In this document: in pieces, positions 6,370 through 10,510 of the stretch | Layout: each line of letters opens with the position of its first letter | How positions within the stretch are numbered: the stretch's first letter is position 1 | Virus record (IMG/VR): IMGVR_UViG_2690315922_000021 | Coordinates: 1-10,510 of that record | Reading direction: 5' to 3' (one strand) | DNA: 10,510 nucleotides | Source of the DNA: a virus | Taxonomy: Duplodnaviria > Heunggongvirae > Uroviricota > Caudoviricetes | Notes under the pieces: model-generated | The model's database searches: none | What the model was told of the DNA's origin: nothing | Seen by the model: the letters and a program-made list of their open reading frames with translations, nothing else | Translations under genes and position numbers: made by a program

Positions 6370-7479
6370 ATGACCGACACCACCATGCAATTGCTCAGTC
6401 AGGGCACAGACCCCGTGAAAATGCCGGATTTTGATATTCTCGCGGAGGGTAAAACGCTGTCAGGCGTGGCAGAGCGCCTGATGAGCCTGTCACTGACCGA
6501 CAACCGGGGATTTGAGGCGGACCAGCTCACCATCACGCTGGATGATGCGGATGGTCAGTTGCAGCTACCGCCACGGGGCGCGCGCCTGACGGTTCTCATT
6601 GGCTGGAAAGGAGAACCGCTGACAGAAAAAGGCACTTACATTGTTGATGAAATCGCTCACGAAGGACCGCCGGACAGGCTGACTGTTTCAGCCAGAAGCG
6701 CAGATTTTCGGGATGAATTTAACGTTAAACGTGAGGTGTCCTGGCATGATGTGACCATTGAGCGTGTGGTATCCGCCATCGCTCATCGGTATGGTCTGAA
6801 ACCGCAAATCAGCGAAATGCTGATGGATATCGAAATCGACCACGCCGACCAGACCGAAGAAAGCGACATGTCCTTCCTTACGCGCATGGCGGAAATGCTG
6901 GGCGCAATCACCACGGTAAAAAGCGGTAATCTGTTATTCATTATGCCAGGCGGTGGCGTGAACGCACAGGGCCAGCCGTTGCCATCGTTCGCCATCACGC
7001 GCAGCAGTGGCGATCGCCATCAGTTCCGCATTGCTGACCGCGAAGCGTATACGGGGGTACGCGCTTACTGGCTTGATCTTAATTACGGGAAAAAGAAAAA
7101 AGTCAGCGTGAAACGCCGCAAACCGCCAAAACCCAAAAAGGAGAAAAGCAGCAGCCGTGAAGGTGATTATATGGAAGGCGCGGAAGGCAATGTGTTTGTG
7201 TTACGCAAGACTTATCAGAACGAGCAGGCAGCAAGACGCGCAGCGGCGGCAAAGTGGCAGCAGCTACAACGCGGAGCCGCATCATTCTCCATCACGCTGG
7301 CACGTGGTCGTGCAGAACTCTACCCCGAAATGCATGGCACGGTAACAGGATTTAAAAGCGAGATTGATAATCAGGACTGGATTATTGCAAAAGCCGAGCA
7401 CACCATCGATAACAGCGGCTTTACCACGCAGCTTGAGCTTGAGGCAAAAATCCCGGAATGGATAGCAGAAACAGAGTGA
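6370..7479 (+). CDS. D: Phage late control protein D (gpD, baseplate hub, gp27/VgrG-like)
   Basis: Long ORF. The start is placed at the ATG at 6370, preceded by GGAGGGAA; the track start at 6238 would add an S/P/R/T-rich 44-aa extension and crowd the divergent FI start. Assigned as gpD by size and by position immediately upstream of ogr. Contains a Lys/Arg-rich low-complexity insert. Confidence 0.85.
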   Translation: MTDTTMQLLSQGTDPVKMPDFDILAEGKTLSGVAERLMSLSLTDNRGFEADQLTITLDDADGQLQLPPRGARLTVLIGWKGEPLTEKGTYIVDEIAHEGPPDRLTVSARSADFRDEFNVKREVSWHDVTIERVVSAIAHRYGLKPQISEMLMDIEIDHADQTEESDMSFLTRMAEMLGAITTVKSGNLLFIMPGGGVNAQGQPLPSFAITRSSGDRHQFRIADREAYTGVRAYWLDLNYGKKKKVSVKRRKPPKPKKEKSSSREGDYMEGAEGNVFVLRKTYQNEQAARRAAAAKWQQLQRGAASFSITLARGRAELYPEMHGTVTGFKSEIDNQDWIIAKAEHTIDNSGFTTQLELEAKIPEWIAETE

Positions 7480-7521
7480 GCAACTTAGAATAGCAGCAGC
7501 ACCACGTTAAGGGAGGTCGCT

Positions 7522-7782
7522 ATGTTCCGTTGTCCGCTTTGTGGCGCATCTGCCCGTATCCGCACCAGTCGTCCGGAAAATGATTCAAACACCGTGCGGC
7601 AAAAGTATTACCAGTGTAACAACCTGGAATGCGGCGTATGCTTCTCAACACTGGAAGCTTTCCATAAATTCACATCAAAACACGCCTCCGGCGTTCACTC
7701 TTCAGAAGGTATCCCGTGGCATGAGCTGCCAGCTTCACACAGGGGAAACAATCAGATGAGTTTGCCTTTACCTCAGAATTAA
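7522..7782 (+). CDS. ogr: Ogr/Delta-family zinc-finger late transcription activator
   Basis: 86-aa ORF beginning MFRCPLCGA...TSR with a C-x2-C-x22-C-x4-C arrangement (CPLC ... CNNLEC), matching P2 Ogr (MFHCPLC...). Shine-Dalgarno AAGGGAGG upstream. Position immediately after D as in P2. Confidence 0.88.
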   Translation: MFRCPLCGASARIRTSRPENDSNTVRQKYYQCNNLECGVCFSTLEAFHKFTSKHASGVHSSEGIPWHELPASHRGNNQMSLPLPQN

Positions 7783-7791
7783 CAGGCAGAA

Positions 7792-7820
7792 TTGCCGGAG
7801 TAACAAAAAAGCGATAGATT
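7792..7820 (+). promoter_or_regulatory. Candidate sigma70 promoter for the hok-like transcript
   Basis: TTGCCG (7792-7797), 17-bp spacer, TAGATT (7815-7820), upstream of the mok/hok-like frames. Sequence inspection only. Confidence 0.25.
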
Positions 7821-7870
7821 ACGCGCGGGTGCCTTTCGGCTGATGGTCGGAGGGAATACCCGAAGGCCAG

Positions 7871-8107
7871 ATGTGGAAAGGCCCCGGAAAACATTTCTGT
7901 TTAACCGAGGCCCTAACACTTCTTACCTTCGCAAGTAGAAGGTTAGCGCCTCTCCTCTCAGGAGACAAGCGTTATGACGCAAATTCCGTTAAAAACCCTG
8001 TTACTTTGCATAACTGCGGTAGCGATAATCTGGATCCTCCACACATCACCGTGCGAGTTACGATTCAGGTTTGCTGGCACGGAAATTGCGGCATTCTTAC
8101 TATGTAA
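7871..8107 (+). CDS. mok-like overlapping leader frame (modulator of killing) of the hok-type locus
   Basis: Frame-shifted ORF that starts about 100 nt upstream of the hok-like ORF and ends 7 nt before its stop, the same overlap geometry as mok/hok. AAGG 5 nt upstream of the ATG at 7871. Confidence 0.4.
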   Translation: MWKGPGKHFCLTEALTLLTFASRRLAPLLSGDKRYDANSVKNPVTLHNCGSDNLDPPHITVRVTIQVCWHGNCGILTM

Positions 8108-8114
8108 TAAGTAA
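7974..8114 (+). CDS. Hok/Gef-family type I toxin (small membrane peptide)
   Basis: 46-codon ORF absent from the ORF track (below length cutoff): MTQIPLKTLLLCITAVAIIWILHTSPCELRFRFAGTEIAAFLLCNK. Has an N-terminal transmembrane helix with conserved Cys-x-Thr and the C-terminal CE[LI]R[FY]R.G..E[IV]AAF signature of Hok, HokB and RelF as recalled. Shine-Dalgarno AGGAGA 8 nt upstream of the ATG. Confidence 0.7.
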   Translation: MTQIPLKTLLLCITAVAIIWILHTSPCELRFRFAGTEIAAFLLCNK

Positions 8115-8200
8115 GATAACCGCGACGGGGGAGTAATCCCCCGTCAATCGGTTGCTAAGGTTGGTCGAAACGGCACCCTATCTCACAGACATGAACAACA

Positions 8201-8234
8201 AACCCGCAGCGTAAAAACTGCGGGTTTTCTTTTT
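8201..8234 (+). terminator. Rho-independent terminator (3' end of hok-like transcript)
   Basis: CCCGCAG (8203-8209) / CTGCGGG (8218-8224) stem with loop CGTAAAAA, followed by TTTTCTTTTT (8225-8234). Confidence 0.75.
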
Positions 8235-8258
8235 GGTGCCCTCACAAATGAGGGCACC
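8235..8258. repeat. Perfect 9-bp inverted repeat GGTGCCCTC-N6-GAGGGCACC
   Basis: Arms at 8235-8243 and 8250-8258. Not followed by a U-tract on either strand, so it is either a second hairpin of a tandem terminator or a protein-binding dyad upstream of the com-like gene. Confidence 0.5.
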
Positions 8259-8280
8259 ATACATAAGCAATAGGCATAAC

Positions 8281-8320
8281 AGATCGATGCAATAAATCCG
8301 ATCGATAAAAACGATCGATT
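8281..8320. promoter_or_regulatory. Cluster of three GATCGAT repeats upstream of the com-like gene
   Basis: AGATCGAT (8281-8288), CGATCGAT (8299-8306), CGATCGAT (8312-8319). GATCGAT was not found elsewhere in the window on visual scan. Lies 45-85 bp upstream of the com-like start. Confidence 0.5.
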
Positions 8321-8363
8321 TGTTATCATATCGGCAGCAGTAACCACACAAGAGGTGCCGCAA

Positions 8364-8561
8364 ATGACGCAAAATGTACGATGCAAAAATTGCAACAAAC
8401 TACTTGCCCGCGCCTCATTTCACTACATTGAAATAAAATGTCCGCGCTGCAAAACACTTAACCAGATAACGAGAGCCATCGAGCACCCCACACACATTAG
8501 GAGTTATGACCGTGGGGATCGCAATCCAGCACCAACCAGCACATACACCGGAACACACTAA
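8364..8561 (+). CDS. com: Mu Com-like zinc-finger translational regulator
   Basis: 66-aa ORF from the ATG at 8364 (the track starts at a GTG at 8355). RCKNCNKLL...HIEIKCPRCK...EHPT matches the Mu Com Cys4 zinc finger (RCKNCNKLL...HIEIRCPRCK...EHPT) as recalled. Shine-Dalgarno AGAGGTG upstream. The 3' end overlaps the start of the downstream methyltransferase. Confidence 0.85.
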   Translation: MTQNVRCKNCNKLLARASFHYIEIKCPRCKTLNQITRAIEHPTHIRSYDRGDRNPAPTSTYTGTH

Positions 8562-9297
8562 GGTTTATCAGACTGACAATGCCACGCTCTGTCGTGGGAA
8601 TGCGCTGGAAATATTGCCGCTGATTGAGCCAGAAAGCATTGATGCCTTAATCACTGACCCGCCTTACAGTTCGGGTGCGACACACAAGGCCGGACGCACC
8701 AACCAGGGCAGCCATGCAAAATATCTGAACGGCGAGAACATTCACCGTTTTGATGGGTTCGCGGGTGAAAACATGGACGCCCGTTCGTGGGCTTACTGGA
8801 CACAATTATGGATGGCACAGGCACACCGCGCAGTCAGGCCGGGCGGTTATGCCCTGGTATTTACTGACTGGCGACAATTACCAGCTTTAACCGATGCGTT
8901 TCAGGCCAGTGGCTTTACATGGCGCGGCATCATTGCGTGGAACAAGGGGAGGGGGTCACGAACACCACATACCGGGTATTTCCGGCATCAGTGCGAATAC
9001 ATCGTCTGGGGCAGCAAAGGCCATTTAGATAAATCGCCTTCGGGACCGTTCGACGGCTGCATGACATTCCCGGTTATCCCGTCAAAGAAAATGCACCCGA
9101 CCGGAAAACCAGAAGAACTAATGGCGGAACTGGTCAGGACTGTGAATAGTGGCGGAACAGTCCTTGATCCTTTTATGGGGTCAGGGACAACGGGTGTGGC
9201 TGCACTGAAAGCAGGACGCAAATTTATTGGTATAGAAACCAGTGATCATTATTTTGATGTAGCAACACAACGGCTAAAAACGGCGATCGAACCATAA
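8506..9297 (+). CDS. DNA methyltransferase, beta-class amino-MTase (probably N6-adenine), orphan
   Basis: 263-aa ORF with motif IV DPPY near the N-terminus (LITDPPY) and motif I FMGSGTTG near the C-terminus, the IV-then-I order of beta-class N6A/N4C methyltransferases. Shine-Dalgarno AGGAG upstream of the ATG at 8506. No restriction endonuclease partner in the window. Confidence 0.9.
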   Translation: MTVGIAIQHQPAHTPEHTKVYQTDNATLCRGNALEILPLIEPESIDALITDPPYSSGATHKAGRTNQGSHAKYLNGENIHRFDGFAGENMDARSWAYWTQLWMAQAHRAVRPGGYALVFTDWRQLPALTDAFQASGFTWRGIIAWNKGRGSRTPHTGYFRHQCEYIVWGSKGHLDKSPSGPFDGCMTFPVIPSKKMHPTGKPEELMAELVRTVNSGGTVLDPFMGSGTTGVAALKAGRKFIGIETSDHYFDVATQRLKTAIEP

Positions 9298-9302
9298 GAC
9301 AA

Positions 9303-9330
9303 AGCCCGCAATGTTGCGGGCTTACTCTAC
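9303..9330 (+). terminator. Probable intrinsic terminator downstream of the methyltransferase
   Basis: AGCCCGCAA / TTGCGGGCT inverted repeat (9303-9322) followed by a pyrimidine-rich TTACTCTAC tract. The U-tract is weak. Confidence 0.4.
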
Positions 9331-9462
9331 CTCTCGAAAATGTGGTCACTGCGTGGACATACGCTGATACAAATCCTTTTATATCAATAAATTAAATCTT
9401 TGTTTTTTTCATCAACAAGGATTTTCACGTTTGTGGTACCTGTATGAGACGAGAGTTAACCA

Positions 9463-9479
9463 AACAAGTGTGCCATAAT
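9463..9479 (+). promoter_or_regulatory. Candidate extended -10 promoter for flk
   Basis: TGTGCCATAAT (TG-n-CATAAT) about 50 bp upstream of the flk ATG in an AT-rich region. Sequence inspection only. Confidence 0.25.
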
Positions 9480-9526
9480 CTCGCGCCCAGGCATACTTGC
9501 GATGATTTCAGGTATAAGGATACATA

Positions 9527-10510
9527 ATGATACAACCTATTTCCGGCCCTCCTCCCGGGCAACTGCCAGACCGGGAAAACAGCGCAGGCAATCAGCCTTT
9601 ATCCAGTCTGCAACGAACCGCCCTGGAAAGCTTGATGACCAAAGTAACCTCGCTGACGCAACAACAGAGAGCGGAGTTATGGGCCGGCATCAAACACGAC
9701 ATCGGCCTGCCAGGCGATTCACCTTTACTCTCGCGCCACTTCCCCGCTGCGGAACATAACCTCGCGCAACGTCTGCTTGCCGCGCAAAAGAGCTATTCTG
9801 CTCGTCGGCTTTTAGCCCAGTTAGGAGAATATTTACGGTTGGGAAATAACCGTCAGGCGGTTACGGATTACATCCGAAATAACTTTGGTCAGACACCGCT
9901 TAACCAACTCTCGCCAGAACAATTAAAGACCATTCTTAACCTGTTACAGGAAGGGAAAATGGTTATTCCTCAACCACAGCAACGTCAGGCTACCGATCGT
10001 CCTTTATTACCGGCGGAGCATAATACGCTTAAACAACTGGTGACTAAACTCGCCGCGGCGACAGGGGAACCCAGCAAGCAGATCTGGCAGTCGATGCTGG
10101 AGCTTTCTGGTGTGAAAGATGGCGAACTAATCCCGGCAAAACTGTTTAACCATCTGGTCACCTGGTTGCAGGCGCGTCAGAGCTTAAGCCAACAAAATAC
10201 CCCGACGCTGGAATCGCTTCAGATGGCGCTAAAGAAACCGCTGGATACCAACGAGCTGGCAGCACTATCCGCGTATATCGAGCAAAAATATGGCCTTTCC
10301 GCGCAATCCGTCCTTTCTTCTGTACAGGCTGAGGATATCCTGAACCAGCTCTATCAACGGCGGGTTAAAGGGATTGATCCACGAGACATCCAGCCACTGC
10401 TCAATCCCTTTCCACCATTAATGAACACATTGCAAAATATGGCGACACGTCCCAGCGTGTGGATTTTATTAGTCGCCATCCTCATCATGCTGGTCTGGCT
10501 GGTACGTTAA
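9527..10510 (+). CDS. flk: Flagellar regulator Flk (C-tail-anchored inner-membrane protein), host chromosomal gene
   Basis: 327-aa ORF beginning MIQPISGPPPGQ, Gln-rich, with a single C-terminal hydrophobic anchor (WILLVAILIMLVWLVR). Matches enterobacterial Flk as recalled. Shine-Dalgarno AAGGA upstream. Confidence 0.8.
   Translation: MIQPISGPPPGQLPDRENSAGNQPLSSLQRTALESLMTKVTSLTQQQRAELWAGIKHDIGLPGDSPLLSRHFPAAEHNLAQRLLAAQKSYSARRLLAQLGEYLRLGNNRQAVTDYIRNNFGQTPLNQLSPEQLKTILNLLQEGKMVIPQPQQRQATDRPLLPAEHNTLKQLVTKLAAATGEPSKQIWQSMLELSGVKDGELIPAKLFNHLVTWLQARQSLSQQNTPTLESLQMALKKPLDTNELAALSAYIEQKYGLSAQSVLSSVQAEDILNQLYQRRVKGIDPRDIQPLLNPFPPLMNTLQNMATRPSVWILLVAILIMLVWLVR

Follow-up and report, generated by a model that had tools for sequence, protein, structure and literature searches.

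The window, a 10,510-nt stretch of DNA from a tailed-phage record of IMG/VR (IMGVR_UViG_2690315922_000021), probably carries a complete mom-operon control cassette of phage Mu, fronting an orphan beta-class DNA methyltransferase in place of Mom, in a P2-like prophage. A Com operator, a hairpin with a GUG codon and a GATC triad are all present, in support of the proposal, made in a sequence-only reading, that the control logic of mom has been moved onto another DNA-modification enzyme. The locus is the right-end cargo of a P88/Xuanwuvirus-type P2-like Escherichia coli prophage, where gpD and Ogr mark the host phage as P2-like. On the 5' side of the cassette are found ogr, a hok/sok-like module and an intrinsic terminator (8200..8227, + strand; stem AAACCCGCAG/CTGCGGGTTT, then TCTTTTT), the latter lying between the ogr and hok/sok region and the com cassette; on the 3' side, the methyltransferase gene is followed by the host gene flk. 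In strain 5283 an IS1 adjoins the locus.

The com gene (8364..8561, + strand) starts at ATG 8364, preceded by the ribosome-binding site AAGAGG (8350-8355), reaches its stop at 8561, and encodes a protein of 65 aa, with a CCCC zinc ribbon, that belongs to the Mu Com family. Profile searches, by which the first assignments could be checked, were run on both proteins: Com matches the Pfam profile PF10122 (Zn_ribbon_Com) with E=1e-11 and 44.5 bits, against a cutoff of 22.9, while the methyltransferase matches PF01555 (N6_N4_Mtase) with E=3.4e-33. The former match, along with 60% identity to Mu Com over 42 residues, bears out the initial description of the protein as a Com homolog. The N-terminal zinc ribbon has the pattern CxxC-15-CxxC, and its cysteines (C7, C10, C26 and C29) are invariant in an alignment of 25 Com sequences. 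No model matching Com was found in NCBIfam, and no relative was found by sequence in the PDB. Values of dN/dS are 0-0.22 for the zinc ribbon and 0.9-2.1 for the C-terminal half, where dS is depressed. The C-terminal EHPT, originally listed as a motif of the protein, did not hold up as such: it corresponds to the operator and a hairpin arm, described below, read in the com frame.

The second gene (8506..9297, + strand) encodes the orphan beta-class methyltransferase: its reading frame runs from ATG 8506 to the stop at 9297 (263 aa), with a likely start at GUG 8512, so that the length is 261-263 aa, depending on the start. Both catalytic motifs, DPPY (8656-8667) and FMGSGTTG (9172-9195), are intact, and confirm, together with the PF01555 match, the SAM-dependent amino-methyltransferase recognized at first sight; the beta class follows from their order, since motif IV (DPPY) precedes motif I (FMGSGTTG). 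The gene is under purifying selection, with dN/dS of 0.03-0.13. Its relatives in the PDB are 5hek, 6pbd (CcrM) and 1g60, and the closest solved structures are adenine methyltransferases: on the basis of these and of DPPY, the target base is probably N6-adenine. The names of the homologs are all generic, with no characterised close homolog among them, so that they allow no specificity to be deduced. Should it be broad in specificity, the enzyme would be a candidate tool enzyme, as well as a phage host-range determinant against restriction systems. No restriction gene was found among the neighbours (ogr, hok/sok, com, flk), as had been noted for the window: the cognate endonuclease gene that a Type II restriction-modification system would have next to the enzyme is absent.

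Inside com, 25-40 nt 5' of the payload start codon, lies the predicted Com RNA operator (GAGAGCCAUCGAGCACCCC, 8471..8489, + strand), an exact match to the SELEX consensus for Com binding, NGAGNNCC(N)2-3GAGNNCCNN (PMC6483171). This consensus is matched once in the window (8471-8487, + strand), with 0.01 matches expected by chance, and recurs at the corresponding place in 58 related loci. The operator is predicted to fold into a short hairpin, where GAGC (8473-76) faces GCAC (8485-88) across the loop CAUCGA, with CC(N)3GAG in the loop (8476-8483). The second pair of the stem is, in the lineage of the window, an A.A mismatch, which could weaken the hairpin.

When 60 non-redundant Com loci were compared, the hairpin pattern NNGC-C(N2-4)GA-GCNN turned out to occur about 115 times more densely in the 3' half of com (3.4 per kb against 0.03 per kb). 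The two variable base pairs of the operator are complementary in 39 of 53 unselected instances (expected 14%; p=2e-22), and 11 different pair types occur there: this count and the density contrast are the evidence relied on. The 100% pairing seen in a separate alignment was rejected as circular, its sequences having been picked by a pattern requiring complementarity. With a covariance model from which the window was left out, 8468-8491 comes first among the matches in the window, but at E=0.12 only. The motif is too short to reach window-wide significance alone; Rfam features no family at either the operator or the inhibitory hairpin.

On these comparative grounds the conserved operator bears the marks of an RNA structure rather than of a DNA site: it is strand-specific, is found in the transcript and shows compensatory changes. 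The product name given by RefSeq (PGAP) is "Com family DNA-binding transcriptional regulator", according to which Com would be a DNA-binding transcription factor, activating or repressing transcription of the methyltransferase gene rather than its translation. That the conserved element is a strand-specific transcript hairpin with compensatory changes, located inside com, makes such a role extremely improbable, as does the behavior of Mu Com, which is an RNA-binding translational activator (PMC6483171, PMC3378877). The RefSeq product name is therefore probably misleading.

A predicted translation-inhibition hairpin (8486..8517, + strand) adjoins the operator: CCCCAC (8486-91) pairs with GUGGGG (8512-17), while in the inner stem CAU (8495-97) pairs with AUG (8506-08). 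The ribosome-binding site GGAG (8500-03) falls in the loop, and both AUG 8506 and GUG 8512 are paired. The hairpin is the minimum-free-energy fold (-11.9 kcal/mol), but in isolation it exceeds shuffled sequences only modestly in stability (z=-1.7; 9 of 200 shuffles reach the same level), and over 101 nt (8440-8540) the folding is not superior to that of shuffled sequence (z=-0.46). Folding energy alone being unconvincing, the argument for the hairpin rests on homology and comparative evidence: the arms are identical to those of the Mu mom hairpin, the GUG of the 3' arm shares the reading frame of the payload, be it Mom, a beta methyltransferase or a C5 methyltransferase, in all enterobacterial loci examined, and the inhibitory hairpin of Mu takes in the mom GUG start codon (PMC6483171).

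The methyltransferase probably starts at the in-frame GUG 8512 rather than at AUG 8506, both because GUG lies 8 nt from GGAG (8500-03), compared with 2 nt for ATG, and because it is homologous to the GUG of Mu mom. The reading frames and their 56-nt overlap (8506-8561, in different frames, the methyltransferase being counted from ATG 8506) are as first described; the overlap is refined to 50 nt with the likely GUG start. Such a layout, with com directly upstream of its payload and overlapping it, is that of most of the 159 Com loci with a downstream ORF.

The features shared with Mu com-mom include the Com zinc ribbon, the overlap of com with the payload start, the operator hairpin with CC(N)3GAG in the loop, a neighbouring inhibitory hairpin (arms CCCAC/GUGGG) whose 3' arm contains an in-frame GUG, and three upstream GATC sites, 18 and 13 nt apart, over an OxyR-like site. 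The inhibitory hairpin of the window differs in its loop, which is 20 nt long and contains an extra AUG, compared with 11 nt in Mu. The payloads also differ: Mom is an acetamido-adenine enzyme, and its profile PF25680 is matched by Mu Mom and by the payload of one of the Com loci, L107, while the window payload, a beta-class SAM-dependent enzyme, matches PF01555 instead. Mu, moreover, is a transposable Mu-like phage, the phage of the window a P2-like one, and three elements of Mu are missing from the window: the C-activator site, the T-run promoter and a leader of about 45 nt.

In the alignment of the upstream region with Mu, the C-activator site, which has the consensus TTAT-N6-ATAA, is absent upstream of com, and the stretch of Mu that extends from TAACCACAC to the com ribosome-binding site has no counterpart in the window; the GATC sites of the two align. 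Inspection by eye revealed no activator site of the P2 Ogr type (TGT-N12-ACA) upstream of com. The GATC triad (8270..8315) consists of sites at 8282-85, 8300-03 and 8313-16, spaced 18 and 13 nt; relative to com they lie at -82, -64 and -51, the corresponding positions in Mu being -109, -91 and -78. The two best matches of the window to the OxyR consensus (8270-8306 and 8279-8315, 15 of 20 positions) overlap the triad, which may be seen as a putative Dam-sensitive OxyR operator. In Mu, too, the best OxyR-consensus match is the GATC triad, which we take to be the experimentally defined OxyR site; a study by Hattman and Sun in 1997 is said to deal with OxyR and the mom promoter. The three-GATC/OxyR arrangement of Mu is backed in part by the reference list of PMC3378877 and by the Mu sequence itself.

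A predicted sigma-70 promoter (8302..8329, + strand; TCGATA-16-TATCAT, the -10 being preceded by TG) shares positions with GATC sites II and III and is the sole such match in 7700-9600. Expression in lysogens might be possible from this promoter, and the methyltransferase could then be an enzyme of lysogenic conversion, transcribed in the prophage from its own promoter, possibly phase-variable by Dam/OxyR, and methylating the host chromosome, with altered host gene expression or restriction identity as the outcome. The extended -10 of the promoter, the absence of a Mu C-activator site and the terminator, which insulates the cassette from the phage late genes, all fit this explanation, as do the position at the prophage end, where conversion genes are often found, and the GATC/OxyR arrangement, which matches the logic of agn43, a phase-variable gene under Dam/OxyR. 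We nonetheless hold lysogenic conversion to be unlikely. The promoter is a consensus match only, while the gating by Com and hairpin, which in Mu holds a harmful enzyme off, has been kept and is conserved. Precedents also weigh against it: the com-linked methyltransferases of the FluMu and Hia5 prophages give no detectable methylation in lysogens (PMC3299994), and M.EcoGI and M.EcoGII, also of prophages, are silent in the lysogen (PMC5778455).

The preferred reading is a switch that keeps the enzyme off, in which RNA binding, gating of translation, timing of expression and anti-restriction are modelled on Mu and its relatives. Transcription would start from a promoter overlapping three Dam (GATC) sites, resembling the OxyR operator of Mu Pmom. 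On the resulting bicistronic mRNA, com would be translated freely, while the start region of the methyltransferase would be locked by the CCCCAC/GUGGGG hairpin. The Com zinc ribbon would then bind the adjoining short hairpin, with CC(N)3GAG in its loop, as suggested by homology to Mu and by the conservation of the cis-element; once bound, it might open, or outcompete, the base of the inhibitory hairpin, exposing ribosome-binding site and start codon. The methyltransferase would in this way be produced only after Com accumulates, and, by analogy with Mom, Hin1523 and Hia5, could methylate the phage DNA as it replicates and ahead of packaging, so that this DNA would be shielded from restriction once in the next host. 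Of the two roles initially put forward, epigenetic or anti-restriction, a lytic-phase anti-restriction one is ranked as likelier than lysogen epigenetics, given the undetectable lysogen methylation of FluMu and Hia5 (PMC3299994). Since the enzyme is likely made only after induction, methylome surveys of lysogens will probably miss it.

Whether the pairing of com with a methyltransferase had been described was left open by the sequence-only reading. For Mu-like phages it has: com is associated with an adenine methyltransferase in FluMu (HI1522.1/Hin1523), Hia5, Pnm1 (NMA1821) and B3 (ORF47/48) (Drozdz 2012, PMC3299994), and Morgan et al. 2002 are cited for such genes in the same paper. As in the window, a Com homolog is found there directly 5' of an adenine methyltransferase replacing mom, a Com binding site has been proposed at the 5' end of the methyltransferase gene, and expression in the lytic phase only, with an anti-restriction role, is presumed. 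These enzymes, however, were aligned by the authors with the Dam-family M1.DpnII and EcoDam (PMC3299994), reside in Mu-like phages and fall in BLAST groups separate from the beta-class enzyme of the window; for Hia5 and Hin1523 a near-complete lack of specificity has been shown. The window methyltransferase does not belong to the Hin1523/Hia5 family and groups with PF01555 proteins, while the payloads of Haemophilus type (L048, L056 and others) make up a BLAST superfamily of their own, with no Pfam match in the two representatives tested, L048 and L058.

The com-methyltransferase pair of the window already carries an annotation in GenBank and RefSeq. A literature search combining com, P2-like phage and methyltransferase returned Mu-like precedents only. 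The new points are that the host phage is P2-like, that the payload is of the beta class and that there is evidence for a cassette moving as a module.

Two further groups of phage-borne enzymes may be compared. M.EcoGII and M.EcoGI are non-specific beta-class adenine methyltransferases (Murray et al. 2018, PMC5778455), located, like the present amino-methyltransferase, on E. coli prophages; they are toxic if constitutively expressed, and are proposed to act against restriction once the prophage is induced. The paper mentions neither zinc nor mom, and its available text describes no com gene. They are longer (349 aa, compared with 261-263 aa) and reside on another prophage type; an M.EcoGII-like, non-specific nature was considered for the window enzyme, the comparison being one of length and description only. 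Com-less homologs, P0040 and P0080, are also orphan methyltransferases, found in Mu-like prophages of Salmonella and E. coli: they are about 250 aa long, match PF01555 and are 55-62% identical to the window enzyme, but lie downstream of Mor, inside the block of late/lysis genes, and have neither com nor operator nor inhibitory hairpin. These homologs operate in their Mu-like prophages with no com gene, so that the enzyme is not necessarily so toxic as to call for gating.

The survey of 160 Com loci showed that the gene following com may be a D12 methyltransferase, Mom, a beta methyltransferase, a C5 methyltransferase or a Hin1523-type methyltransferase. Between L107, which carries Mom, and L117, which carries a C5 methyltransferase, 92% identity is confined to the cassette, and homology between the window and L117 stops at 8518. 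The recombination junction appears, from these comparisons, to lie about 10-15 nt or less past the start codon. The identity of L107 and L117, the breakpoint between window and L117, the dN/dS of the Com C-terminal half and the survey of payload families lead us to favor, with some reserve, a unit of about 250 bp, comprising the Dam/OxyR GATC sites, com, the Com operator, the inhibitory hairpin and GUG, which would act as a payload-agnostic, horizontally mobile "safety gate". It would have spread from Mu-like to P2-like phages and been joined to no fewer than five families of unrelated enzymes: Mom, D12/alpha N6A, beta N6/N4, C5 cytosine and Hin1523-type methyltransferases. As a corollary, the A-x-E-H-P-T / A-x-S-x of the Com C-terminus would be the footprint of the operator in the com frame, rather than a feature of the protein. 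The locus itself indicates that the multilayer "off until late" circuit of mom is peculiar neither to Mom nor to Mu-like phages, and represents a reusable control module for DNA-modifying enzymes; the unit formed by Com, operator and hairpin, a compact and naturally portable translational switch, could serve for the expression of toxic genes.

The com-methyltransferase DNA is matched in 316 of 5426 complete E. coli genomes (about 6%); at more than 95% identity the locus is found in about 200 complete E. coli genomes, and it is present in Salmonella and in the isolated phage Chuche as well. This spread bears on the idea of a decaying remnant, a cargo without a current role in which the methyltransferase or Com would be nonfunctional. 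Truncated methyltransferase ORFs in some related contigs (174 aa in L085, 161 aa in L102), the mismatch in the operator stem and the IS1 of strain 5283 could be taken as signs of decay. In the window both ORFs and the catalytic motifs are intact, the selection seen on the methyltransferase and on the Com zinc ribbon is purifying, and the sequence is closely maintained in the genomes just mentioned: decay is, on this evidence, highly unlikely. Directly past the methyltransferase stop codon, a GC-rich hairpin (AAGCCCGCAA-TG-TTGCGGGCTT, 9302..9323), without a T-run on the + strand, marks the end of the cassette, ahead of the phage/host junction at about 9426.

The pairing described by the sequence-only reading, a Mu Com-like gene followed by a DNA methyltransferase gene, holds as written. 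The 65-aa product of com (8364-8561) matches Pfam Zn_ribbon_Com in a profile search (E=1e-11, over the curated cutoff), is 60% identical to Mu Com across 42 residues and retains the four zinc-binding cysteines, all in keeping with the clear homology claimed for it. The residues EHPT, cited as a Com hallmark, have another origin: in the com frame they are encoded by GAG CAC CCC ACA, where the 3' arm of the operator (the RNA target of Com, inside com) is followed by the 5' arm of the inhibitory hairpin, which covers the methyltransferase start. The methyltransferase ORF (8506-9297; PF01555, E=3.4e-33) does overlap com by 56 nt, and DPPY (8656-8667) precedes FMGSGTTG (9172-9195), as in the beta class. 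Among solved structures, the closest to it are those of adenine methyltransferases (H. pylori DpnA-like 5hek; CcrM 6pbd). No restriction gene is found in its neighbourhood, as the same reading had stated. Sequence and comparison thus establish both protein families and the orphan status of the enzyme, as well as purifying selection, indicated by the dN/dS ratios of the com zinc ribbon (0-0.22) and of the methyltransferase (0.03-0.13). The C-terminal half of Com gives ratios of 0.9-2.1, with depressed dS; the disordered Com tail is reported to be dispensable for RNA binding (PMC6483171).

In Mu, the Com-binding hairpin adjoins a translation-inhibition structure, the stem of which holds the mom GUG start codon (PMC6483171). 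Judged from sequence, these cis-regulatory elements of the mom operon are present in the window. The published Com-binding consensus (PMC6483171) has exactly one match, GAGAGCCAUCGAGCACC (8471-8487, + strand; 0.01 expected by chance); in the window's lineage the operator stem carries one A.A mismatch (GAGC/GCAC). The next six bases after the match, CCCCAC (8486-8491), form a stem with GUGGGG (8512-8517). It is recovered in the minimum-free-energy fold together with an inner stem (CAU 8495-97 / AUG 8506-08), which leaves the ribosome-binding site GGAG (8500-03) unpaired in the hairpin loop. Mu shares these arms (CCCAC/GUGGG), and they are placed likewise with respect to its operator. GUG 8512, in frame with the methyltransferase, is likelier to be the start codon than AUG 8506, because it lies 8 nt from GGAG, versus only 2 nt for the AUG, and because it is the sole candidate in related loci with no AUG in the loop. 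The proposal that mom regulatory logic is carried over to a different modification enzyme is therefore borne out, at the level of predicted elements, by a Mu-type operator and an inhibitory hairpin with an in-frame GUG.

The operator was also evaluated by comparison across 160 Com loci, drawn from viral contigs as well as reference genomes and reduced to 60 non-redundant representatives. In the 3' half of com, complementary-stem instances of NNGC-C(N2-4)GA-GCNN reach a density of 3.4 per kb; the remainder of these loci gives 0.03 per kb. When complementarity is not imposed, both variable stem pairs are complementary in 39 out of 53 instances (chance 14%; background 8/55; p=2e-22), with eleven different pair combinations, which favours a genuine RNA structure over a DNA site. 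A covariance model was derived from 39 such hairpins, the window left out; its top match in the window is 8468-8491 (13.6 bits; E=0.12 over the 21 kb searched).

Some loci feature other arrangements. In L045 (2594-2640), a Pseudoalteromonas locus with a beta-class modification gene, the operator hairpin is ACGC/GCGU and the inhibitory stem, just ahead of AUG, is GCGUCAC/GUGACGC; since both use the bases GCGU, the two structures are mutually exclusive, which makes the switch clearer here than in Mu or in the window. A tandem pair of operator-type hairpins is present in the 3' part of com in L149, L150, L151, L037 and L028, for example GCGC-CACGA-GCGC then ACGC-CACGGA-GCGU. Such pairs agree with the bipartite nature of the SELEX motif and with a suggestion that Com may use more than one site (PMC6483171).

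Upstream of com, GATC sites are found at 8282, 8300 and 8313 (-82, -64 and -51 relative to the com start codon). They are spaced 18 and 13 nt apart, exactly like the three sites upstream of Mu com (-109, -91, -78), and the two regions align. The Mu triad, where the OxyR site has been defined experimentally (Bolker & Kahmann 1989; Hattman & Sun 1997; both cited in PMC3378877), is the best match of an OxyR consensus scan of Mu; in the scan of the whole window, the two best matches (15/20 positions) fall on the GATC cluster. Among the Com loci surveyed, such clusters are confined to enterobacterial ones, as expected if control depends on Dam. In the alignment to Mu, the C-activator site, T-run promoter and ~45 nt leader are absent upstream of com. 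By consensus match, a sigma-70-like promoter is predicted at 8302-8329 (TCGATA-16-TATCAT, with TG before the -10 hexamer), overlapping GATC sites II and III. A perfect 10-bp palindrome (GGTGCCCTCA-caaa-TGAGGGCACC, 8235-8258), between a terminator (8200-8227) and the triad, is followed by no T-run and might bind a protein or form a second hairpin.

Com binding to the operator would relieve the inhibitory hairpin, expression would be limited to lytic growth, and the enzyme would methylate adenines of phage DNA, allowing evasion of restriction. The main rival, for which the GATC/OxyR-like cluster is also relevant, is that the enzyme is made in the lysogen and acts there as an epigenetic conversion factor, perhaps with phase variation through Dam and OxyR; we regard it as improbable. 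The com-linked enzymes of FluMu and Hia5 showed no detectable activity in lysogens, and Com sites have been proposed at the 5' end of hin1523 (PMC3299994); the prophage beta-class enzymes M.EcoGI and M.EcoGII are silent in lysogens and toxic if expressed (PMC5778455).

The replacement of mom by an adenine methyltransferase behind com is already published for Mu-like phages: FluMu (HI1522.1/Hin1523), H. aegyptius Hia5, Neisseria Pnm1 and Pseudomonas B3 (PMC3299994). No description of com with a beta-class enzyme in a P2-like phage, or of a modular cassette, was found in the literature searched, an absence that is weak evidence. The payload, i.e. the gene overlapping com or next after it, was classified in the best 80 matches of each scan, so that counts are not frequencies: D12-class N6-adenine methyltransferase (56 loci, 29 clusters), Mom (37, 6), beta-class PF01555 (35, 5), C5 cytosine methyltransferase (11, 4) and Hin1523/Hia5-type protein (10, 6). 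Among these matches the beta-class group comprises unrelated marine lineages and the window's own; of the surveyed loci, only those of the window's lineage combine a beta-class payload with a P2-like context (gpD, Ogr and Hok upstream).

Two viral contigs, L107 (2392-2668, Mom) and L117 (2392-2669, C5 methyltransferase), share 92% identity over one stretch alone, which begins ~110 nt upstream of com and ends ~13 nt beyond the GUG; past it they are unrelated. The shared stretch contains the GATC sites, com, operator, inhibitory hairpin and ~13 nt of payload, and would place a recombination junction directly after the start codon. Similarity of the window to L117 stops at 8518, right after GUGGGG. 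Comparison thus indicates that the cassette behaves as a module. Homologs of the methyltransferase (55-62% identity) also occur without com: Mu-like prophages from Salmonella and E. coli (L164 3001-3741; L165-L167 3001-3753) have them among late and lysis genes, surrounded by holin and lysozyme genes downstream of Mor. The enzyme family is thus not tied to the Com gate. In Clostridia and other Firmicutes (L061, L070, L072, L079), a Com-like zinc-ribbon ORF and a terminator-like hairpin precede a 700-800-aa protein, with no Pfam match in the two representatives tested (L061, L072); these loci seem not to be DNA-modification cassettes.

The window belongs to a P2-like prophage of P88/Xuanwuvirus type and, across 7400-9425, shares 92.7% identity with Escherichia phage Chuche. 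Its tail genes, gpD, Ogr (PF04606) and hok/sok-like module are followed by com and the methyltransferase, and these by host flk. Of 5426 complete E. coli genomes, 316 contain matches to the 1.1 kb from 8300 to 9400; a single match spans at least 80% of the query in 171. RefSeq names the products "Com family DNA-binding transcriptional regulator" (e.g. WP_001353016.1, L163 3065-3262, for 8364-8561) and "DNA-methyltransferase"; in phage Chuche the GenBank names are "gpCom control of modification" and "DNA methyltransferase". The RefSeq name for Com is at odds with its documented RNA-binding, translational role, as well as with the covariation seen in its target at the RNA level.

Since identity to Chuche stops near 9426 and flk (flagella biosynthesis regulator, NCBIfam E=4e-142) begins at 9527, the prophage/host junction is placed at ~9300-9526; in E. 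coli strain 5283 an IS1 is inserted in this region (L163 4286-4983). The hok/sok-like type I toxin-antitoxin module (7827-8114, + strand), between ogr and com, includes an Rfam sok match (7827-7985; 47.4 bits, under the gathering score of 59) and a 46-aa Hok-family ORF (7974-8114; weak NCBIfam HokA and Hok matches, annotated Hok/Gef in RefSeq). A second Mu-related module of the prophage is a Hin/Gin-type serine invertase (1-600, + strand; PF00239 plus HTH_7), its DNA 74% identical to Mu gin across 384 nt, which adjoins the gpU and tape-measure tail genes on the opposite strand.
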